Part shown: positions 18,393 to 41,459 of the stretch, piece by piece | Position numbering within the stretch: position 1 is the first letter of the stretch | Layout: each line of letters begins with the position of its first letter | From: an uncultured Mycoplasmatota bacterium | GTDB taxonomy: Bacteria > Bacillota_I > Bacilli_A > RF39 > UBA660 | Assembly (NCBI GenBank): GCA_946414095.1 | Contig: CAMKNB010000003.1 | Coordinates: 2,161-66,160 of the forward strand | Reading direction: 5' to 3' | DNA length: 64,000 bases | The notes under the pieces: generated by a model | Told to the model about the DNA's origin: nothing | The model's input: the letters and a program-made list of their open reading frames with translations, nothing else | The model's database searches: none | Made by a program: the position numbers and the translations under genes

Positions 18393-19388
18393 ATGTTAAA
18401 AGTAGCAATTAATGGTTTTGGAAGAATAGGTAGAACAGCACTTAGATTATTACAAGATGATAAAGATATTGAAGTTGTAGCAATCAACGATTTAACTGAT
18501 GCAGAACAACTTGCATATCTTTATAAATATGATTCAGTTCATAGAACAGTTAATTATAGAGTAAATTATGATGAAGAAGGATTAATTGTTAAGGATAAGA
18601 AAATAAAAGTATTTAAGGAAATGGATCCAACTAATTTGCCATGGAAGGAACTAGGGGTAGATGTTGTACTTGAATGTACTGGAGTGTTTACTTCTGCTGA
18701 AAAATGTCAGGCACATTTAGATGCTGGGGCAAAACATGTAATAATTAGTGCTCCTGCTAAAGATGAAGTTAAGACTATTGTATATGGAGTAAATCATGAA
18801 GAATTAAATAAAAATGATAAAGTTATTAGTGCAGCAAGTTGTACTACTAATTGTCTTGCTCCAGTTGTTAAATTAATAGATGATAAATACAAAGTAGTTA
18901 AGGGATTTATGACTACAGTTCACGCTATGACTAATGATCAAGAAACATTAGATATTCCACATAAAAAAGGAATTTCATCAAGACGTGGTAGAGCTGCTTC
19001 ATTAAATATTGTTCCAACTTCTACAGGAGCTGCTTCTCAAATTGGAAAAGTAATACCACATTTAAAAGGCAAAATGGATGGAGTTGCATTTAGAGTACCA
19101 GTTGGAGATGGAAGTGTAGTTGATATTACTTTAGAACTTGAAAAACCAGTTACTAAAGAAAATATTAATAATATGTTTAAATCATCTCAAAGTAAAACAT
19201 TAAAATATACAGAAGATCCAATTGTAAGTAGTGATATTATTGGAGAAGAGTGTGGAGCAACAGTAGATGGACTTCTAACTAATGTTGTTGAAAGTGATGG
19301 AAAACAACTTCTTAAAGTAGTAGCTTGGTATGATAATGAAGTTGGTTATACTGCTCAAATGATAAGAACAATGAAATTATTTATGTAA
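18393..19388 (+). CDS. gap: Type I glyceraldehyde-3-phosphate dehydrogenase
   Basis: INGFGRIGR Rossmann motif, catalytic SCTTNCLAP, TTVHAMTNDQ and WYDNE. Confidence 0.95.
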   Translation: MLKVAINGFGRIGRTALRLLQDDKDIEVVAINDLTDAEQLAYLYKYDSVHRTVNYRVNYDEEGLIVKDKKIKVFKEMDPTNLPWKELGVDVVLECTGVFTSAEKCQAHLDAGAKHVIISAPAKDEVKTIVYGVNHEELNKNDKVISAASCTTNCLAPVVKLIDDKYKVVKGFMTTVHAMTNDQETLDIPHKKGISSRRGRAASLNIVPTSTGAASQIGKVIPHLKGKMDGVAFRVPVGDGSVVDITLELEKPVTKENINNMFKSSQSKTLKYTEDPIVSSDIIGEECGATVDGLLTNVVESDGKQLLKVVAWYDNEVGYTAQMIRTMKLFM

Positions 19389-31224: not shown

Positions 31225-32364
31225 ATGAAAATAATTACTGATGCTGATGTAAAAGGGAAGAAAGTACTAGTTAGGGTTGACTATAATGTTCCAAGAAAAG
31301 ATGGACATATTATTGATGATACAAGAATAGTTGGTAGCCTTAGAACTGTTAATTATTTAGTTGAAAATGGAGCTAAAGTAATTTTAATGTCTCACTTAGG
31401 TAGAGTTAAGAGTGAGGAAGATAAGAAAGAAAATTCACTTAAAATAGTAGCTGAGCATTTGAGTTCTTTAGTTAAATGCCCTGTATATTTTTCAAGTGAA
31501 ACAAGAGGAGAATTACTTGAAACAACCATAAACAATTTATTAGATGGTGAAATTTTATTAATGGAAAATACTAGATTTGAAGATTTTCCTACTACACTTG
31601 AGAGTTCTTGTGATGAGGCTTTATCAAAATATTGGGCTAGTCTTGCTGATATTTATGTTCTTGATGCTTTTGGTAGTGCTCATAGATGTCATGCATCAAC
31701 TTATGGAATATCTAAATATATTCCTTCTTATGCTGGCTTCCTTGTTGAAGATGAAACAAAGATGTTAGATAAGTCTATGAAAGAAAATAAAACACTAGTT
31801 TTAGGAGGAGCTAAAGTAGATGATAAGATTGGTGTAATTAATAATCTTCTTCCAACCTCTAATAAAGTTTTAATTGGAGGAGCTATGTGTTTTACTTTCT
31901 TAAAAGTAAAAGGGTTTAATGTAGGGAAAAGCCTAGTTAGTGAAGAGAATATTGAATACGTTAAAGATTTATTAGAAAAAAATAGTGATAAGATAATTTT
32001 ACCAGTTGATTTTATAACTCAAAATGGCGTTAAAGATATTGATAAATTTAGTAATGATGATATAGGATTTGATATTGGTCCTAAAACAATAAAACTATTT
32101 AAAAGTGAACTTAAAAATAGTAATTTAGTGTTATGGAATGGACCACTTGGTAAATATGAAGAAAAAGAGTATGAAAATGGTACTTTAGAAATAATGAAAT
32201 ATTTAGAAAAAGAGAAATTTCCTACTATTTTAGCAGGAGGAGATGTGACTGGAGCTGCAGGACATTTTGGAATAAAAATGTATTATGTATCTACTGGTGG
32301 AGGATCTACTCTTGAATATCTTGAAGGTAAAAAGTTTAAAACATTAGAAAGATTAAATGGTTAA
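31225..32364 (+). CDS. pgk: Phosphoglycerate kinase
   Basis: RVDYNVP, SHLGR, ENTRF, FGSAHRCHAS, GGAKVDDKI, WNGPLG and STGGGSTLEYLEGK are all present. Confidence 0.95.
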   Translation: MKIITDADVKGKKVLVRVDYNVPRKDGHIIDDTRIVGSLRTVNYLVENGAKVILMSHLGRVKSEEDKKENSLKIVAEHLSSLVKCPVYFSSETRGELLETTINNLLDGEILLMENTRFEDFPTTLESSCDEALSKYWASLADIYVLDAFGSAHRCHASTYGISKYIPSYAGFLVEDETKMLDKSMKENKTLVLGGAKVDDKIGVINNLLPTSNKVLIGGAMCFTFLKVKGFNVGKSLVSEENIEYVKDLLEKNSDKIILPVDFITQNGVKDIDKFSNDDIGFDIGPKTIKLFKSELKNSNLVLWNGPLGKYEEKEYENGTLEIMKYLEKEKFPTILAGGDVTGAAGHFGIKMYYVSTGGGSTLEYLEGKKFKTLERLNG

Positions 32365-32365
32365 T

Positions 32366-33064
32366 ATGAAAAAAATAATTTTAAATCAAAAAAGTTATTT
32401 AATGTATGATGAAATGGTAAGTTTTAAAAAAGAATTTGAGAAGATTAAGCATCCATCATATGAATTTATTTTATTTCCTCCAGTGCATTATTTATCGTTA
32501 TTTAAAGATAGTGATTATAAAGTTGGAACTCAAAACTTTTATACATATAAGGCAGGCTCTTTTACTGGTGAAATAAACCTTGAATCTTTAAAAGATATGG
32601 GGATTAATTATACTTTAGTAGGTCATTATGAAAGAAGAAAATTCATGGAAGAAACATATGAAAGTGCTAAAGAAAAGTTATTTAAGTCTTTGAGTAGTAA
32701 ATGTAATACAATATTATGCGTTGGTGAAGAAAGAAAAACAATAAGACCATTTAGTCATATTAAAAAAGAAATTAATTATTATTTAAAGAGTATTGAGTCA
32801 TCGACATATAAATATCTTAGCATTGCATATATTCCTAGTTGGGCAGTAGGTACTGGAGACAAAGACATAAATAAAGTATCTGAAATAATTACTAATATTA
32901 AGAATTATATGTTATCTAAATATAAAATTGATGTAGAGGTATATTATGGTGGAAATATAGAGAATAGCAATATTAAAGAATTATTTGATATATGTGATGG
33001 GTTAGTACTTGATAAAGATAGTACAAATATTAAAATACTAAAAGAATTATTAAAGGAAATATAA
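32366..33064 (+). CDS. Triosephosphate isomerase homologue lacking the canonical catalytic Glu and GG phosphate loop
   Basis: It sits in the tpiA position 1 nt after pgk. It keeps N..K (ILNQKSY), FTGE, VGHYERR, PSWAVGTG and YYGGN. It reads IAYIPSW where TIMs have AYEPxW, and GLVLDKDST where TIMs have G(A/V)LVGGASL. Confidence 0.7.
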   Translation: MKKIILNQKSYLMYDEMVSFKKEFEKIKHPSYEFILFPPVHYLSLFKDSDYKVGTQNFYTYKAGSFTGEINLESLKDMGINYTLVGHYERRKFMEETYESAKEKLFKSLSSKCNTILCVGEERKTIRPFSHIKKEINYYLKSIESSTYKYLSIAYIPSWAVGTGDKDINKVSEIITNIKNYMLSKYKIDVEVYYGGNIENSNIKELFDICDGLVLDKDSTNIKILKELLKEI

Positions 33065-33122
33065 TTCTTTTTTAATTAGCTAATAAATGATATAATATAG
33101 TTAATAATTGGAGGTTTTTTGT

Positions 33123-36100
33123 ATGAACGAAAAATTTAGAGTGTTTAAATATCTTTTAATATTAGTATTATTTTTATTCAATGTAAATTATGTTTTTTCA
33201 TTAGAGAAAGAAACAATTATTGAAGATAAGACTAAAGAAAAAACAATTAAAAATGATTTAGAAGGTGAATCTATTAATAGTGTTGAATCAACTAATGAAA
33301 CAAATTCAAGCGAAACAATACTTGTTTCTAGTATAGAAGTGGCAAGTGAAGTTGATGAAATATTTGATACTGAAACATTACAAATGAGTGCCACTGTTTA
33401 TCCTGATGATGCTACAAATAAAGATATTCTATGGTCTGTAGTAGATGGTACTGGAAGTGCAACTATTTCAGATAGTGGATTATTAACTCCAACTAAACCA
33501 GGTACTGTAACAGTAAGGGCAATAGCAACTGATGATAGTGGCTGTTATGGAAGTAAAATAATAACAATAAAACAAACATATGTTGAGAGTATTATTATTG
33601 CTGGAAACAACAGTGTACAAAGAACTAAGACAATACAATTTTCCACATCAATTAGTCCAACAAACGCATATAATAAAGGAATATCTTGGACAGTTACTAA
33701 TGGAACAGGAGAAGCTACAATTTCATCAAGTGGTGAACTAACAGCAATAAAAAATGGAACAGTAACAGTAAGGGCAACTGCAAAAGATAGAATGGAAGTT
33801 TATGATGAAAAAGAAATAACTATTACACCATTATTAGTCACTAATGTAAGTATAAGTGGAAGTGATAGATTAAATGTTGGTGATAAAGAATACTATGTTT
33901 CAACAATTACTCCAAGTGATGCAGATGATAAAACAATTACATGGAGTATTACAAGTGGAAGTGAATATGCCAGTGTAAATGAAAATGGATTATTAACAGC
34001 AATATCCGAAGGAACAATTACTTTAAAAGCAACAAGTAGCAATGGAAAAAGTGCACAAAAAACGATTACTATTGTTGGAGAAAATAAACCTACAAAAGTT
34101 ATTTTAACATCAGACAGTTACTTTCTTTCATACTCTTATAATAATACTCCAACTACTAAAATAAGAGCGAAATTGTATCCATCTAACGCAACGATAAAAT
34201 CTATTACATGGAGTACTAGTAACAGCAAGAGTCATATATATCCTGAAGATAATTTCGTAGCGTCTTTGAATTATACAACTTATGATGTATCAACAACAAC
34301 AGTAACTGCTACAGTTACAACAGAAACTGGTGAAACATTAACAGGAACTATAAAAATTAATCTTGGAAGTAGTTTATATGGCTATACTTATGAAGCACAT
34401 GTTAATTCATTGCAACCAACTGATTCTGAAAAAATATTAGAAATTGGTGATATAGGTAAGTTTAATGTTACTTATTCTCCTACTGATGCACCATCAAGTG
34501 ATATTATTTATAACATTTCAGATAGTAGTGTTGCACATATAGATGAAAATGGAAAAATATATGCTAAGGGGATTGGATATGCAACATTATATGCATATTC
34601 AAAATATAATAATAAAACTATAAGTATACCAATTAGTGTCGTTGAAGATAAAACTGAGCCACTTAAAGTTGTAAAAGTTGAAATAAATGGAAAAGATAAA
34701 GTTGAAAGAGGTACTACAGCACAATATAGTGTAAATATCTATCCTGTAAATGCAGCAAATAAAAATGTAACTTGGGAAGTAAAAAAACTTCAAGGTGATG
34801 CATCAGGAGAAGCAACAATAGATGAAAATGGATTATTAACTGCAATATCTGATGGACAAGTTATAGTAAAAGCAACTACTCAAGATGGAAGTAATATAAC
34901 AGTTTCAAAAGTTGTTACTATATCAAGAACTTATGTAGAGGGTATTACAATAAATGGCGAAGATACTGTTGAAAGAACAAAACAGTTACAACTAAGTACT
35001 ACTATTACTCCAAATAATGCATTTATTAAAAAAGTAAATTGGTCAGTTATTAATGGAACAGGAGAAGCAACAATAGATGAAAATGGAATTTTAACAGGAG
35101 TTAAAGAAGGAACTGTTACTGTTAGAGTAGAAAGTACTGATGAAAGTGGAGTATTTGCTGAAAAAGAAATAACAGTAACGCCTATATATGTAAAAGGAAT
35201 AAATATAGAAGGTGAATCATTTGTTGTTAAAGGTAAAAAGTATTATTTTGAATATAATATTATAAATGATGATGCTGATAACAATTCAATAGAGTGGATA
35301 GTTGAAAATGGAACAGGAGAAGCAACAATAGATGAAAACGGAGTATTTATACCTGTCTCTGTAGGTGAAGTTACTGTAAAAATTAAAGCTTTGGATAGTG
35401 GAAAAATATTTGACAGTATGAAAGTTACAATAAATAAGAGTGGAAGCTTAGAAAAAATAGCTATTATAGCTCCTAAGTATAATATATCAACAAATAGTAG
35501 TGTGAAACTAACTGCTATATTAATTCCATCAAATGTTGAAGAAAATTCTGTTGTATGGAGTGTGAATGATACAAATTATGCTACTATATCAACTGATGGG
35601 ACTTTAACTTCTAAAGGTATTACTGGAGTTGTTACAGTAAGAGCTACTGCTAAAGATGGAAGTGGAGTTTATGGAGAAATAAAACTATATATTTCTTCAG
35701 TTAATATAAATGTTGGAAAAAAATATACAGATGAAGTTTATGTTAATTATTTATCATCTGCTTATTTGACATCAACTAATTCAAATGTTGTATCTACTTC
35801 GTTAGGATGGTCATGGACGTCAAGTTCATATGGCACTCTTTATAGTTATAATGTAGAAATAACTGGTATTAGTGCTGGTAACGCAACAGTTTATTTAAGA
35901 AGTGGAAATGGAACTATACTAAAAGAATATTATGTAAGTGTTAGTGGTACTAATGGTGTTATGTTTAGTGATAAGTACTCATTAAATCTTGGATTAAATG
36001 AAACAGATAAAATTAATATATCATTTACTGGATCTAGTTATAAATATTATTTTGTTAGTTCTGATGAAAATGTTGTCAGTGTTGACTCAAGAGGTAATGT

Positions 36101-39038
36101 TGAAGCAAAAGGAGTAGGGAGTGCTACAATTGATGTTTATTCTGAATACTATGGAATGCATATTGAAATACCTGTTACTGTTGTAAAATATACATCTGAA
36201 ATTAGCATTTCACAAGATGAGGTTAATTTAGATAATGAAACTAACTCATATAAAATAAACTATAATGTTTTACCAAATGATGCTAGTAATAAAAATGTTA
36301 TTTTTACTTCTGAAAATGAAAACATAGCAAGTGTATCAAAAGATGGAACTATTTATGCAATTAATAATGGTGAAACATATATAGTTCTTACTAGTGAAGA
36401 TGGTAAATCTACTAATAGAATAAAAGTAATTGTTAATAACTTAATAGCATGTGAAGAAGTAGTAGCAGAGAATACTATTAAAATAAATGTTGATGATAGT
36501 AATCATACTAAAGTTAATTATGAAATAAAACCATCAACTAGTAATCCACATGTAACATTTATTATTGATGATACTAGTGTTGCAACAATTAGTGAAGATG
36601 GATATTTAACAGGTATTAAACCTGGCGAAACAACATTAAAAATATATGCTAATAATAAACTAATGAAAGAAGTAACTATTAATGTTAACAATTATGTTAA
36701 AGTTAAATCATTTAATATTACTGAAGAAGAAGTTACATTAACTACTGAAGGTAAGGTTAAAGAATATAAATTAAATTATAAATTTAATTCTGAAAATGTT
36801 ACAAATAATAAAATTATTTGGACATCATCAGATGAAAATATAGCAACCGTTGATTCAAATGGAAAATTAGTTGCAGTAAACAACGGAAATTGTATAATTA
36901 CTGGTACTACAGATGAAGGTAGTTTTGTTGATACAGTTAATGTTAGTGTTATAGTTGGATATAATACAGTTAATTTTTATGCTACAAATCCTCATTCATC
37001 TTATAATGATTTAATAGAAACTAAAAAAGCGTATTATGGTGAAGAATTCAAATTAGCTAGTGCTCAGCCAATAAGAGGATGGAAAAATGAAGACTGGTAT
37101 TCTTATTATTGGCATTATGATAGTATTGATTATAATTCTGAATACGGAGGCTTTTCAAATAAATATGACGAAAGTATGTTGAATTATGATGGAACAAATT
37201 TAGATTTGTATATAAAAAGAAATAAAAAAGCATTAAAATCTTTTGAAGTCACTAATGCTTATCTTGAAGGTAATTACTTCTATTTGCATTTTAAAATTGA
37301 TCCTGAAGTTGATCATTCTAATGATAGTCTTTCTAATTCAACATATAATGGATTAAAACTAATATATTCTGATTATGACTATGGTAATAATGATAGTGGC
37401 GAATATATCGCATATTTTGAAATAGATAATATGAATGATAATAATTTTAATAATTATATCAGTATTTATCATTATTATGATGAAGCTACTTTGTCATTTT
37501 ATTCAGAATTAGAACAACTTAGTGATGGTCAATATTTGTTAAAAAAATATGGTTCAATTAATACTGATAATACAAAGTATTATTCTTCAAATGGAAAATA
37601 CTCATTGAATAGTAATAATTATTTGTATATTACACCAAACATCACATTATCTAAATATAATTATGATAAAGATGGTAGTATTTTATCTTCTGAAATTCTG
37701 GAAAGTAATATTAAATATAAGTATTTATTAGCAAAAGTCGAAATAGAAGATAAGAATTATAACACTATAGATAGGTTCTCTACGCCACTTTATTTTGATG
37801 AAAGCATGACATCTTATATTGATTTCAACAATTATGGTGGATTTGATACTAATAAAAGATATTTTATATCTTATTATATAATTGATGATAATTTTAATTA
37901 TGTTTATTCTGATTGCCTTGCTAATAGTGAGGTTGCATTACCAATTCCAGAAATAAATGCTGAAGCAAATTCTTATAATTCAAACAAAGTAACTATATTA
38001 AATAGGGATAGTTATGAAAAGATTAAAATATTTAGAAGTTTAAGTTCAAATGGAGAGTATTCATATATTGGGGAAATAAGTGATAATAAAGATTATTATA
38101 TTGATAAAGTAGATGATTATAAAACATATTATTATAAAGTTAAAGGAGTTAATGGTTTATTAGAATCTGATTATAGTATAGATTACTATTATAATGATAG
38201 AAAATATTTTGCTTCTCCTCAAATGGATAAGCCAGTAGTAAGTAAGAAAGTTAGTAAAGGAAAAACTGTAAAGCTTTCTTGGAAGAAAGTTGATGGTGCT
38301 AAGTCTTATTGGGTATGGAAATGTAATAAAACAGGTTCTTCTTGTACGGGAATAAAAGAATTAAAGAGCAAAACAACATCTTATACAATTAAAAATTTAA
38401 AACAAGGAAAAATATATTATTACAAAATTGAAGCTGAAAGTGTTCTAAAGAAAAAGAGTTCTATTACTTCATCTAGTGATGTAATAATTGTTAGAGCAAA
38501 ACCAAAAACGCCTTCTTTAAAACTTAGTAAAAAAAGCTATAATTCTATTAATATAAAAGTTGGAAATGCTGGTTCTGCTACATATTACGAAATATATAGA
38601 AGTAATAGTAAAAAGAAAGGATATAAAAAAGTTCAAACTATATCTAATTATGGTGATTATATAGATAGTACTGTATTACCTTCAAAAACATATTATTATA
38701 AAGTTAGAGCTTGTAATGAAAATGCTTGTAGTTCATATTCAAAAGTTAAATCAATTAAACCAATACTTGGAAAACCAAGTATGAGCATAGCAAAGAATGA
38801 AAGTAAGCAAGCAGTTATTAAATATAATAGTGTTGTTGGAGCTACAAGATATGAAATATATAGAAGTACTAAAGAAAAGAAAGGTTATAAATTAATTAGT
38901 GATATTAAAGATACTAATTATATTGATGAAACAGTTGTTAATAAAAAATATTATTACAAAGTAAGAGCATATATTATTATTAATGGTAAGAAATATTATA
39001 GTAGTTATTCTAAAATCAAAAGTATTAAGATTTCTTAA
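33123..39038 (+). CDS. Giant secreted surface protein with many Big_2 (bacterial Ig-like group 2) domains and C-terminal FN3-like repeats
   Basis: 1971 aa from the ATG at 33123 (GGAGG SD). Signal peptide MNEKFRVFKYLLILVLFLFNVNYVFS. More than 12 repeats of the ...L.A.V.P..A.NK.V.WS..NGTGEATIDENGLLTA...G.VTV.A type, then an unassigned Tyr/Asn-rich region. About four C-terminal repeats have the Y(E/W)I(Y/W)RS...YYYKV(R/K)A pattern. Confidence 0.8.
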   Translation: MNEKFRVFKYLLILVLFLFNVNYVFSLEKETIIEDKTKEKTIKNDLEGESINSVESTNETNSSETILVSSIEVASEVDEIFDTETLQMSATVYPDDATNKDILWSVVDGTGSATISDSGLLTPTKPGTVTVRAIATDDSGCYGSKIITIKQTYVESIIIAGNNSVQRTKTIQFSTSISPTNAYNKGISWTVTNGTGEATISSSGELTAIKNGTVTVRATAKDRMEVYDEKEITITPLLVTNVSISGSDRLNVGDKEYYVSTITPSDADDKTITWSITSGSEYASVNENGLLTAISEGTITLKATSSNGKSAQKTITIVGENKPTKVILTSDSYFLSYSYNNTPTTKIRAKLYPSNATIKSITWSTSNSKSHIYPEDNFVASLNYTTYDVSTTTVTATVTTETGETLTGTIKINLGSSLYGYTYEAHVNSLQPTDSEKILEIGDIGKFNVTYSPTDAPSSDIIYNISDSSVAHIDENGKIYAKGIGYATLYAYSKYNNKTISIPISVVEDKTEPLKVVKVEINGKDKVERGTTAQYSVNIYPVNAANKNVTWEVKKLQGDASGEATIDENGLLTAISDGQVIVKATTQDGSNITVSKVVTISRTYVEGITINGEDTVERTKQLQLSTTITPNNAFIKKVNWSVINGTGEATIDENGILTGVKEGTVTVRVESTDESGVFAEKEITVTPIYVKGINIEGESFVVKGKKYYFEYNIINDDADNNSIEWIVENGTGEATIDENGVFIPVSVGEVTVKIKALDSGKIFDSMKVTINKSGSLEKIAIIAPKYNISTNSSVKLTAILIPSNVEENSVVWSVNDTNYATISTDGTLTSKGITGVVTVRATAKDGSGVYGEIKLYISSVNINVGKKYTDEVYVNYLSSAYLTSTNSNVVSTSLGWSWTSSSYGTLYSYNVEITGISAGNATVYLRSGNGTILKEYYVSVSGTNGVMFSDKYSLNLGLNETDKINISFTGSSYKYYFVSSDENVVSVDSRGNVEAKGVGSATIDVYSEYYGMHIEIPVTVVKYTSEISISQDEVNLDNETNSYKINYNVLPNDASNKNVIFTSENENIASVSKDGTIYAINNGETYIVLTSEDGKSTNRIKVIVNNLIACEEVVAENTIKINVDDSNHTKVNYEIKPSTSNPHVTFIIDDTSVATISEDGYLTGIKPGETTLKIYANNKLMKEVTINVNNYVKVKSFNITEEEVTLTTEGKVKEYKLNYKFNSENVTNNKIIWTSSDENIATVDSNGKLVAVNNGNCIITGTTDEGSFVDTVNVSVIVGYNTVNFYATNPHSSYNDLIETKKAYYGEEFKLASAQPIRGWKNEDWYSYYWHYDSIDYNSEYGGFSNKYDESMLNYDGTNLDLYIKRNKKALKSFEVTNAYLEGNYFYLHFKIDPEVDHSNDSLSNSTYNGLKLIYSDYDYGNNDSGEYIAYFEIDNMNDNNFNNYISIYHYYDEATLSFYSELEQLSDGQYLLKKYGSINTDNTKYYSSNGKYSLNSNNYLYITPNITLSKYNYDKDGSILSSEILESNIKYKYLLAKVEIEDKNYNTIDRFSTPLYFDESMTSYIDFNNYGGFDTNKRYFISYYIIDDNFNYVYSDCLANSEVALPIPEINAEANSYNSNKVTILNRDSYEKIKIFRSLSSNGEYSYIGEISDNKDYYIDKVDDYKTYYYKVKGVNGLLESDYSIDYYYNDRKYFASPQMDKPVVSKKVSKGKTVKLSWKKVDGAKSYWVWKCNKTGSSCTGIKELKSKTTSYTIKNLKQGKIYYYKIEAESVLKKKSSITSSSDVIIVRAKPKTPSLKLSKKSYNSINIKVGNAGSATYYEIYRSNSKKKGYKKVQTISNYGDYIDSTVLPSKTYYYKVRACNENACSSYSKVKSIKPILGKPSMSIAKNESKQAVIKYNSVVGATRYEIYRSTKEKKGYKLISDIKDTNYIDETVVNKKYYYKVRAYIIINGKKYYSSYSKIKSIKIS

Positions 39039-39151: not shown

Positions 39152-39907
39152 ATGAAAATTAAAGTATTGGCAGTAGATGATAATGCAGCACAAGTTAGTA
39201 TGATAAAGAAGTACTTTAATGGAAGTGAAAATATAGAGGTCATAGATACTGCTTCTAATGGTGAAGAAGCTATATCAAAAATAGAAAGTATAGATTTTGA
39301 TATTATGCTTCTAGATTTGATTATGCCTAAAAAAGATGGTATAAGTGTTCTTGAATATATGAAGGAAAATAATATTAGTAAAAATGTTATTGTTCTAACA
39401 TCTTTTAATGAAGAAGAAACAATTAGTAGTATTAGTGAGTATGGTGTTAAATATTATGCTTTAAAACCTTTTGAATTAAAAGGCCTTGAAAATATTATAA
39501 TTAAAATAATGAAATCTAAAAGAAGTAATAATGAATTAGTTGAAATACAAGATAAAGGAATACAAATACAAATTACAAGATTATTACATGAGCTTGGTAT
39601 TCCATCACATATAAAGGGTTATCAATATATTAGATCTGCTATATTAATGGTTTATGATAATCCTGGCTTTATTGGGGGTATAACTAAAGAATTATATCCA
39701 GATTTATCTATTAAATTTAATACTTCTATTCAAAGAGTTGAAAGAGCAATTAGACATGCGATTGAAGTATCTTGGTTAAGAGGAGATATTGACTTAATGG
39801 AAGAAATATTTGGACATAGTGTTGATATAGATAGAGCAAAACCAACTAATTCAGAATTTATTGTTACAATTGCAGATAAATTAAGACTTGATATGATTAA
39901 TGTATAA
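39152..39907 (+). CDS. spo0A: Sporulation-type response regulator Spo0A
   Basis: Receiver domain with VDDN, LLDLIMPKKDG, LTS and KPF. The C-terminal Spo0A effector domain is near-canonical: HELGIPSHIKGYQYIRSAI, QRVERAIRHAIEVSWLRG, KPTNSEFIVTIADKLRL. Confidence 0.9.
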   Translation: MKIKVLAVDDNAAQVSMIKKYFNGSENIEVIDTASNGEEAISKIESIDFDIMLLDLIMPKKDGISVLEYMKENNISKNVIVLTSFNEEETISSISEYGVKYYALKPFELKGLENIIIKIMKSKRSNNELVEIQDKGIQIQITRLLHELGIPSHIKGYQYIRSAILMVYDNPGFIGGITKELYPDLSIKFNTSIQRVERAIRHAIEVSWLRGDIDLMEEIFGHSVDIDRAKPTNSEFIVTIADKLRLDMINV

Positions 39908-39959
39908 AAATCATTCAAGTTTTTTTATTTTTGTGATAGAATATTCACAGGAGAAAAAT

Positions 39960-41459
39960 ATGAAAAAAATTATTTTATTAATTTTAGATGGATTTGGTAT
40001 TAGACAAAATGAAAATGGCAATGCTATAAAGATGTCTAATTTACCTAATATAAATAAAATACTTAAAGATTATTCTGTAAGTGAACTTTCTACTAGTGGT
40101 GAAGTAGTTGGTTTGCCAAAAGGTGTTATTGGAAATAGCGAAGTTGGTCATATGACAATAGGTAGTGGAAGAACAGTTGTTCAACCACTTACTATGATTA
40201 ATAATAGTATTAAAGATAAAAGCTTTTTCTCTAATGATACATTACTTGACTTGATGGATCATGTTAATGAGAATAAATCAACATTACATTTAATTGGGAT
40301 GTTATCTAATAGTTCAAGTCATTCTAGTATTGATCATTTTTATGCTGTTTTGGCTCTAGCTAAAATTAGGAAAGTTGAAAATGTTGTTTTTCATTTTATA
40401 ACTGATGGTAGAGATACTTTACCTAATTCTGCTAAAAACTATATAGATGCTATTATTGAAAAAACTAGGAAATTAAATCTTGGAGTAATAGGAACTTTAT
40501 GTGGTAGATATTATGCAATGGATAATGATGGTAATTATGATAGGATAGAAAAAGCATATAATGTTCTTGTACATAATGTTGGTAATTATTTTGCAGATTA
40601 TAATAAATGTATTGATTTACATTATAAAAGTGGAATAACTGATGAGTTTATAAATCCAAGTATTATTACTAAAGGAAGTAATATTAAAGATAATGATGGT
40701 GTATTGTTTGTTGATTTTAGACCTGAAAGGATGGATGAATTAATATCTTCTTTAGTAGATCCATCATTTAATATGTTTAATGTTAAAAAACTAAAAAACG
40801 TTAAGTATAATGTTTTATATAGTACAAGCAATAAAATTGAAGGGTGTTATACAAATGAGCCTATATCAAATACATTTGGTAAATATTTAGCAGATTTAGA
40901 ATTTAAACAAGCTAGAATATCTGAAGCTACTAAGTATCCTCATGTTACTTATTTCTTTGATGGGGCTGAAGATTTTAGTGATAAAAATATGTTTAAAATA
41001 TTAGTTCCTTCACCTAATGTTGCTAGATTTGATATGAAACCTGAAATGAATATTCTTGAAGTAACAAAGGCTGTTCTTGATGCGATTGAAGATGATTTTG
41101 ACTTTATTTTAGTGAATTTTTCTAATCCAGATATGGTTGGTCATACAGGCAATATTCCAGCAACCGTTAGGGCTTTAGAAGCATGTGATGTTTGTGTTGA
41201 AAAAATATTTGAAAAAGCTAATGAAAATTTTTATGATTTAGTAATAACTTCAGATCATGGAAACGTTGAATTTATGAAAGATAATGATGGTTCATTAAAT
41301 ACTTCTCATACTGATAATCCAGTTCCATTTGTAATATGTAGTGACAAATACAAACTTAAAGAAAATGGTTCACTTAGGGATGTAATTCCAACAATTATTG
41401 ATATGTACGAAATTAGTAAACCAAAAGAAATGACTGGTGAAAGTTTAATAATAAAATAA
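39960..41459 (+). CDS. gpmI: 2,3-bisphosphoglycerate-independent phosphoglycerate mutase
   Basis: LDGFG, GNSEVGHMTIGSGR (catalytic Ser), ITDGRD, GRYYAMDNDGNYDR, NPDMVGHTG and TSDHGN. The ATG at 39960 follows a CAGGAGA SD. Confidence 0.9.
   Translation: MKKIILLILDGFGIRQNENGNAIKMSNLPNINKILKDYSVSELSTSGEVVGLPKGVIGNSEVGHMTIGSGRTVVQPLTMINNSIKDKSFFSNDTLLDLMDHVNENKSTLHLIGMLSNSSSHSSIDHFYAVLALAKIRKVENVVFHFITDGRDTLPNSAKNYIDAIIEKTRKLNLGVIGTLCGRYYAMDNDGNYDRIEKAYNVLVHNVGNYFADYNKCIDLHYKSGITDEFINPSIITKGSNIKDNDGVLFVDFRPERMDELISSLVDPSFNMFNVKKLKNVKYNVLYSTSNKIEGCYTNEPISNTFGKYLADLEFKQARISEATKYPHVTYFFDGAEDFSDKNMFKILVPSPNVARFDMKPEMNILEVTKAVLDAIEDDFDFILVNFSNPDMVGHTGNIPATVRALEACDVCVEKIFEKANENFYDLVITSDHGNVEFMKDNDGSLNTSHTDNPVPFVICSDKYKLKENGSLRDVIPTIIDMYEISKPKEMTGESLIIK

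Follow-up and report, generated by a model that had tools for sequence, protein, structure and literature searches.

Triosephosphate isomerase (TIM) is known from textbooks as the 'perfect' enzyme, and its gene, tpiA, is a near-universal housekeeping gene. What, then, is to be made of a bacterial gene that occupies the customary place of tpiA, immediately downstream of pgk, and encodes a recognizable TIM homolog with isoleucine where the catalytic glutamate should be? The gene in question lies in a 64,000-nucleotide stretch (hereafter, the window) of contig CAMKNB010000003.1 from an uncultured Mycoplasmatota bacterium (GenBank assembly GCA_946414095.1), a metagenome-assembled genome (MAG) of 1.56 Mb in 78 contigs, with ~25% G+C, 85.7% completeness, and 6.5% contamination. 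We favor, with due reservation, the explanation that this is a tpiA ortholog predicted to have lost isomerase catalysis but kept by purifying selection for another role. Below, genomes of the genus (41 species genomes) are denoted G0nn, DNA loci L0nn, and proteins P0nnn; P0001 is the TIM-like product of the window, and the genomes whose TIM lacks the catalytic Glu are G000 (the source of the window), G003, G006, and G013.

The product of the gene is a TIM homolog by sequence, fold, and locus. The Pfam TIM profile (PF00121) matches P0001 with 144.6 bits (gathering cut-off, 20.1), covering residues 4–228 and profile positions 3–241 of 245. All the motifs quoted in the preliminary description of the window are in place (LNQKSY, FTGE, VGHYERR, AYIPSWAVGTG, YYGGN, and GLVLDKDST), as is the single nucleotide that separates the gene from pgk. 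The AlphaFold2 model, built from an 88-sequence alignment, has a predicted local distance difference test score (pLDDT) of 92.3 and a predicted template modeling score of 0.91, with the confidence dipping solely at loop 3 (pLDDT 77) and loop 6 (pLDDT 73). The top Foldseek matches of this model are TIMs only, with template modeling (TM) scores of 0.85–0.89 (0.88 for the best hits) and a root-mean-square deviation of ~2.6 Å. In trees, the TIMs that lack the catalytic Glu (hereafter, Glu-less) are nested among Glu-keeping orthologs, and in all 32 loci of the genus that were examined, pgk adjoins the TIM homolog. We conclude that the open reading frame (ORF) is the tpiA ortholog, that its product is still a TIM barrel, and that it still resides in the pgk-tpiA slot. 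Yet P0001 lacks the defining features of the enzyme, namely, Glu165, Ser211, and Gly232/233 (canonical numbering), and is not to be filed as EC 5.3.1.1. It also scores under every NCBIfam TIM equivalog cut-off, the nearest being NF000728 (115.5 vs 255 bits) and TIGR00419 (87.6 vs 130.6 bits). Low scores are common in this genus, where full-length TIMs reach about 100–172 bits with the Pfam profile, whereas the TIMs of the other families in the class score about 290–330 bits.

The assignment of isoleucine to the column of the catalytic base, on which the preliminary description hinged, holds in alignments both to the Pfam profile and to structures from the Protein Data Bank (PDB): in the phmmer comparison with solved TIMs, AYIPSWAVGTG aligns without gaps to AYEPVWAIGTG, which places Ile156 in the Glu165 column. 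A change from a Glu codon to ATT requires three base substitutions. A homolog search over 5.8 billion proteins yielded 120 closest clusters (at 90% identity) from independent assemblies, of which 63 have no Glu in this column; 62 of these carry I, V, L, T, M, or C, and one carries D. When the query is included, the tally for the 121 sequences is E 57, I 26, V 16, L 11, T 8, and M, C, and D one each. The orthologs in relatives, where the preliminary description proposed to look for the same change, thus display it in 62 other clusters. In a tree built with the trait columns masked, the 62 Glu-less clusters fall on one side of a single branch (Shimodaira-Hasegawa-like approximate likelihood ratio test support, 86), and two changes in all suffice to account for the loss of Glu, the second being the singleton replacement by Asp. 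The Glu-less clade has diverged to ~60% identity to the query, all 62 clusters represent full-length ORFs of 232–236 aa, and the reading frame is intact in all 12 Glu-less DNA loci examined. These observations point to one ancestral loss of Glu, followed by wide diversification.

Two trivial explanations come to mind, an assembly or sequencing mistake in codon 156 and a canonical tpiA hidden in the 14% of the genome that is not assembled, and the fragmented, incomplete, and partly contaminated state of the MAG lends them some color. The probability of such an artifact appears close to negligible, given the three base changes that it would take to obtain ATT from a Glu codon, the recurrence of the same state in the genomes of three other species and across 62 independent clusters, and the lack of a second TIM in all four Glu-less genomes. 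Because the Glu-less state recurs in this manner, Ile156 is, on the comparison of independent assemblies, neither an assembly error nor a private mutation. No second TIM was detected in G000, be it with the Pfam search or when hmmsearch was run without filters on the 9,232 ORFs of at least 40 aa in all six frames (the next match had an E value of 0.06), and G003, G006, and G013 each contain a single TIM match. The suggestion in the preliminary description that the true tpiA lies elsewhere in the genome is thus not borne out, with a residual doubt attached to the 85.7% completeness of G000.

Comparison of the alignment columns between the 63 Glu-less and the 57 Glu-keeping clusters reveals a single clean residue switch. 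The position of Gly232 is occupied by Asp in 62 of the 63 Glu-less clusters (Asp216 in P0001) and by Gly in all 57 Glu-keeping ones. At the Ser211 position, Ser is found in 54 of the 57 Glu-keeping clusters, whereas the Glu-less clusters have mostly Asn (37) or Tyr (12), with Ser in 9. Constraint is gone in the Glu-less clade at Glu165, Trp159, Gly162, Gly164, Lys170, and Ser211, and in a patch of loop 5 (128–131). Loop 6, the lid, is still near-canonical in the window genome and reads SRATLNAD, SNALDEAD, or SHAMSEAD in Glu-less relatives. Only the changes at Glu165, Ser211, and loop 6 and the replacement of Gly232 by Asp set the Glu-less clade apart. By contrast, the substitution of NQK for NWK, of Tyr or Phe for Ser96, and of Lys for Gly233 is genus-wide, being found also in Glu-keeping congeners, and an Asn-His/Gln-Lys motif along with a single-Gly loop 8 is present even in Glu-keeping short TIMs outside the genus; Phe96 is natural in the active Plasmodium TIM. 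We take NQK, Tyr/Phe96, and Lys217 to be lineage traits that are not part of the inactivation. Accordingly, of the oddities listed in the preliminary description, those at Glu165 and Gly232 are specific to the Glu-less clade, but NQK, Tyr96, and Lys233 are shared with Glu-keeping proteins. The loss of the phosphate-gripping loop 8 that it proposed stands for Gly232, replaced by Asp; the Lys at Gly233 is found across the lineage, and Ser211 is lost as well.

The query retains the equivalents of Asn11, Lys13, His95, Glu97, and Thr75, and across the Glu-less clade, Asn7, Lys9, Glu89, Arg90, the GSFTGE stretch of loop 3, YYGG, and DG are invariant. His87, the equivalent of His95, is preserved in 55 of the 63 Glu-less clusters; seven have Tyr instead and one has Leu, the losses mapping to at least five separate branches. 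According to PMC10249627, Asn11 is part of a chain of hydrogen bonds to which Thr75 of the other subunit also belongs. Because residues of the Asn11 type are structural as well as catalytic, their retention would fit a preserved dimeric barrel and is not by itself an argument for catalysis.

The combination of a fixed new carboxylate with preserved polar residues could instead be taken as the signature of a neofunctionalized enzyme, in which the site was rebuilt around Asp216 together with Lys9, His87, and Glu89, the carboxylate having in effect moved from strand 6 to strand 8, and the enzyme acts on something other than a phosphate ester or binds its substrate in another manner. The fixation of Asp216, the invariance of Asn7, Lys9, and Glu89, and selection on the gene that is as strong as that on pgk (see below) are all compatible with such a scenario, and some apparent pseudoenzymes have relocated catalytic residues, as noted in reviews (PMC10211241). 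We nevertheless consider it rather unlikely, given that the putative catalytic His87 was lost at least five times within the clade, that positions 156, 197, 214, and 217 of the pocket and loop 6 vary freely, unlike in a tuned active site, that the gene was deleted in two lineages inside the clade, and that synteny is unchanged, the neighbors including no new gene that hints at a new pathway. A more specific version has a slimmer chance still, namely, that the Glu-less clade is a new family of TIM-derived enzymes in which the carboxylate passed from Glu165 to Asp216 and acts, with Lys9, His87, and Glu89, on a small non-phosphorylated or cationic substrate. Should it be correct, the family would provide phosphoketolase-dependent gut bacteria with a reaction that has no assigned gene, a candidate being the missing step that feeds GpsA where the genome shows no source of dihydroxyacetone phosphate. 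Another kind of altered chemistry put forward in the preliminary description, a methylglyoxal synthase (MGS)-like activity, finds no evidence: the MGS domain yields only marginal matches (19–28 bits, to ORFs of 227–280 aa that are not MgsA) in 22 of the 41 genomes and none in the four Glu-less ones. Among the six genomes without TIM (see below), only G053 has an MGS-domain match, all these scores being too near the threshold for the pattern to be trusted.

The Glu-less gene is under purifying selection about as strong as that on pgk. Pairwise ratios of non-synonymous to synonymous substitution rates (dN/dS, NG86 method) in the closest Glu-less pair, the window and G013, are 0.083 for both TIM and pgk. 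Where loop 6 is remodeled, the values for TIM and pgk, respectively, are 0.198 and 0.192 (L060 vs L061) and, with the loop remodeled in full, 0.116 and 0.093 (L061 vs L062); for L057 vs L058, also with a remodeled loop 6, the TIM value is 0.125, that for pgk being not available. The highest value, 0.237 vs 0.123 for pgk, comes from the pair that lost both Glu and His (L055 vs L056). Glu-keeping pairs at comparable dS show 0.07–0.09. The maximum likelihood (ML) estimates of omega (IQ-TREE, GY codon model) are 0.021 for both the 12 Glu-less and the 13 Glu-keeping TIM genes, with 0.013 and 0.020 for the matching pgk sets; the codon trees span 20–26 substitutions per codon and hence are saturated, so that the equality of the omegas is to be trusted but not their absolute values. 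The low dN/dS together with an omega equal to that of the Glu-keeping orthologs indicates that the Glu-less protein is not drifting.

These values bear directly on the possibility that the gene is a decaying relic, heading for loss and intact only for want of time. TIM is dispensable in the genus, with frequent deletions and independent damage to the active site, as detailed below, and at non-synonymous sites, the TIM gene evolves up to 1.8 times faster than pgk in the His-less pair and in comparisons involving L060. In most pairs of the Glu-less clade, however, this ratio is only ~1.0–1.4, compared with 1.3–2.1 for the independently degenerate TIMs of G018 and G021. With dN/dS of 0.08–0.24, far below 1 and equal to that of pgk in most pairs, ML omega identical to that of the Glu-keeping orthologs, intact frames in all 12 Glu-less loci examined, and 62 diverged full-length clusters (with the caveat that broken copies escape a protein search), decay is largely refuted and very unlikely to be the explanation.

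Why catalysis by TIM could be lost at all is suggested by the metabolic complement of the genus. A phosphoketolase (XFP_N) is encoded in 38 of the 41 genomes and in all 17 of those of good quality. There was no match, in five genomes searched for each, to class II fructose-bisphosphate aldolase (FBA), phosphofructokinase, the DeoC/LacD aldolases, transketolase, transaldolase/fructose-6-phosphate aldolase (FSA), FGGY kinases, Dak1, or class II aldolases (the profiles without a match include PF01116, PF00365, PF01791, PF00456, PF00923, and PF00596), and 2-keto-3-deoxy-6-phosphogluconate aldolase (PF01081) had no match in all 41 genomes. Class I FBA gave no match either, but the control matched nowhere, which makes this result uninformative. 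The phosphoketolase route feeds glyceraldehyde-3-phosphate straight into lower glycolysis, and no dihydroxyacetone phosphate (DHAP) is made, so that TIM would be left without catabolic flux.

The distribution of TIM in the genus is in line with this reasoning. Six of the 41 species genomes have no TIM, and in the five of these that were checked, pgk is directly followed by another gene, which indicates real deletions and, for these five genomes, leads us to reject incompleteness of the assemblies as the cause of the absence. In the PGK tree, two of the TIM-less genomes, G014 and G015, branch from within the Glu-less clade with a support of 98, and G004 and G056 are found among Glu-keeping species. 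The TIMs of three other congeners, which occupy the same slot as the window gene, are damaged in other catalytic residues: G021 combines replacement of the catalytic Glu by Asp with a broken loop 6, G018 has lost loop 6 along with the H95Q and E97Q substitutions, and G010 has S96P and no loop 6 (clusters P0110, P0119, and P0120 belong with these degenerate TIMs). On the PGK tree, these are independent events. Taken together, the deletions and the independent damage to the active site argue that TIM catalysis, as judged from the genes, was given up repeatedly in the genus. As an aside, the TIM of G010 (L031, G010:C7) has Pro at the Ser96 position (SHPERKK) along with the collapsed loop 6; in laboratory work, S96P is the classic second-site change that suppresses E165D and H95N (PMC12874384). 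A further candidate for pseudogenization was rejected: the stop-ridden TIM gene of G007 (G007:C1:1159055-1159762), a single-contig, 1.5-Mb congener that is 45% complete, is accompanied by an equally broken phosphoketolase gene (1245037-1246098), and the genome looks like an error-rich long-read assembly.

The phosphoketolase route leaves a puzzle. The DHAP-requiring enzyme GpsA (PF01210) is encoded in 35 of the 41 genomes, including all four Glu-less ones, and could be served by a weak but sufficient TIM that uses water or another residue as the base and lets a trickle of DHAP form from glyceraldehyde-3-phosphate. With an alternative source of DHAP undetected and with His, Asn, and Lys kept in the query along with a nearly canonical loop 6, this scenario has some appeal, but we give it little credence. 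The conservative E165D replacement alone lowers kcat ~1500-fold (PMC12874384); here, the carboxylate is absent altogether and Ser211 is lost, Asp at the Gly232 position should repel the phosphodianion, and some members of the clade have no recognizable loop 6. Moreover, GpsA is retained in four of the five genomes with confirmed deletion of TIM (G004, G014, G015, and G056), so that its retention does not imply TIM activity, and PlsY (PF02660), the usual consumer of glycerol-3-phosphate, is found in none of the 41 genomes. GpsA is kept in the genus without a recognizable source of DHAP or PlsY, a gap in the glycerol-3-phosphate economy of these bacteria. Only two genes for GDPD (glycerophosphodiester phosphodiesterase) were found in the genus, and one of them (G043:C43:9330-11613) shares its contig with a truncated TIM gene ~1.3 kb away.

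In the scenario that we propose for the tpiA ortholog without isomerase catalysis, isomerase activity would have become dispensable in the genus. In a single ancestral event in one clade, the catalytic base was replaced by a hydrophobic residue and Gly232 by Asp. The backbone NH of Gly232 grips the phosphate of the substrate, and the carboxylate at position 216 would thus exclude or replace the phosphodianion. Loop 6 and Ser211 then drifted freely, with repeated loss of His95. Asn7, Lys9, Glu89, and Thr67 would have been retained as they also hold together the barrel and the dimer interface. The function under selection would be a second one that the TIM fold already had, and in this role the protein most likely acts without catalysis, as a structural or a ligand-binding element. 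It appears very unlikely that the window protein is a working isomerase.

Several observations weigh against this scenario. The equivalents of His95, Asn11, Lys13, and Glu97 are intact and loop 6 still reads PSWAVGTG in the window genome, so some ligand binding or chemistry may persist in this protein. DHAP-requiring GpsA is present and other sources of DHAP (Dak1, class II aldolase, FSA, or FGGY kinase) went undetected, a pattern that might mean that residual TIM activity is needed. The new Asp, being invariant, may denote a rebuilt rather than a dead active site. The incompleteness of G000 leaves the residual doubt on a second tpiA mentioned above, and the loss of activity is deduced from sequence. 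On balance, the proposal of the preliminary description that the gene encodes a pseudoenzyme or a TIM barrel with altered chemistry is upheld: the base and the phosphate grip are gone, the ortholog remains in situ, and selection equals that on pgk. The phosphoketolase route as the metabolic reason, the clade-wide extent of the loss, the invariant Asp of loop 8, and the lineage-wide nature of the other oddities go beyond that description.

The features of the locus are collected in the table. The ATG of the TIM gene is preceded by a second in-frame ATG nine bases upstream (window positions 32357-32365), which overlaps the end of pgk (MVNMKK...) and is taken as the start in many database homologs, giving 235 aa; MKK is the conserved TIM start across the genus, and the genes called in L061 and L062 do not have the upstream ATG. 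In most relatives (compared were L055, L056, L059, L061, L062, L057, L058, and L060), spo0A directly follows the TIM gene. In the window, a gene for a 1976-aa Big_2-type surface protein (33108-39038) is inserted between the two, unrelated ORFs of 171–429 aa occupy the same junction in other relatives, and in G014 and G015, an ORF of 433–441 aa follows pgk where TIM would be. The junction between TIM and spo0A has the look of a hot spot for insertions.

Table 1 Genes of the window and active-site elements of the TIM-like protein P0001 (window coordinates).
Feature	Position	Strand	Remarks
gap	18393-19388	+	
pgk, phosphoglycerate kinase, 379 aa	31225..32364 (including stop)	+	Pfam PGK PF00162, 412.2 bits, full profile
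TIM-fold ORF, 232 aa + stop, tpiA ortholog without the catalytic Glu	32366..33064	+	Pfam TIM, 144.6 bits; ATG at 32366, 1-nt gap after the pgk stop
Asn7-Gln8-Lys9 (canonical Asn11-Trp12-Lys13)	32384..32392	+	Asn and Lys invariant in the Glu-less and Glu-keeping clades
His87-Tyr88-Glu89 (canonical His95-Ser96-Glu97)	32624..32632	+	His kept in the query; Glu89 invariant
Ile156 codon (att), column of the catalytic base Glu165	32831..32833	+	PDB alignments and column tally
Loop 6 (lid), Pro157-Asp165	32834..32860	+	PSWAVGTGD in the window genome
Loop 7, YYGGN	32942..32956	+	Asn197 replaces phosphate-binding Ser211
Loop 8, Asp216-Lys217	33011..33016	+	replaces phosphate-binding Gly232-Gly233
spo0A	39152-39907	+	
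gpmI	39900-41459	+	

A whole clade of animal-gut bacteria maintains an ortholog of TIM that is predicted to be unable to use the textbook mechanism and is conserved as tightly as pgk. Annotation pipelines label any PF00121 match triosephosphate isomerase, and where a TIM step is included in the reconstructed metabolism of these uncultured Bacilli with small genomes, the reconstruction is probably wrong. The genus also offers a natural experiment on roles of the TIM fold beyond catalysis, with a graded series of proteins that runs from working-looking to Glu-less, to both Glu- and His-less, and to deleted, and in which the fixed replacement of Gly232 by Asp would mean either that the protein plugs its own phosphate site or that the base has moved.

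How the window protein relates to known systems can be seen from several comparisons. With canonical TpiA (EC 5.3.1.1, PF00121), it shares full-length homology, a barrel that superimposes at a TM score of 0.88, and the slot after pgk, but differs in the absence of Glu165 and in the changes of Ser211 to Asn, Gly232 to Asp, Gly233 to Lys, Ser96 to Tyr, and Trp12 to Gln. The Glu-keeping TIMs of the genus are of the same length class (~232–240 aa), have the same gene order, and share NQK, Tyr/Phe96, and the loop 8 in which a single Gly is followed by Lys, and short TIMs from outside the genus (for example, P0136 and P0138), likewise of this length class, read LNHKS, GHSERK, and LIGK/LLGR. Unlike the window protein, both groups keep AYEP.WAIG.G, YGGS, and the loop-8 Gly and presumably are working, if unusual, TIMs. 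With pseudoenzymes in general (PMC10211241), the window protein shares descent from an enzyme, loss of motifs, and conservation by selection. P0001 accordingly fits the definition of a pseudoenzyme at the sequence level, that is, descent from an enzyme and purifying selection after motif loss; in the full-text library searched, neither a pseudoenzyme among bacterial TIMs nor the TIM of this lineage is described.

A further comparison is with the PGK-TIM fusions of the Thermotoga maritima type (NCBIfam NF010569), in which pgk and tim are translationally coupled, as they are in the window. The fusions form one chain, whereas in the window there are two separate proteins. A related lineage encodes a 612-aa PGK-TIM fusion (P0137), whose PGK and TIM parts are 53% and 46% identical, respectively, to their window counterparts and whose TIM part keeps Glu. 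This could be a Rosetta-stone hint of an association between PGK and TIM or else a mis-called frame. Together with the universal coupling of pgk and TIM, the fusion in the related lineage makes PGK a natural candidate for a partner of the Glu-less protein.

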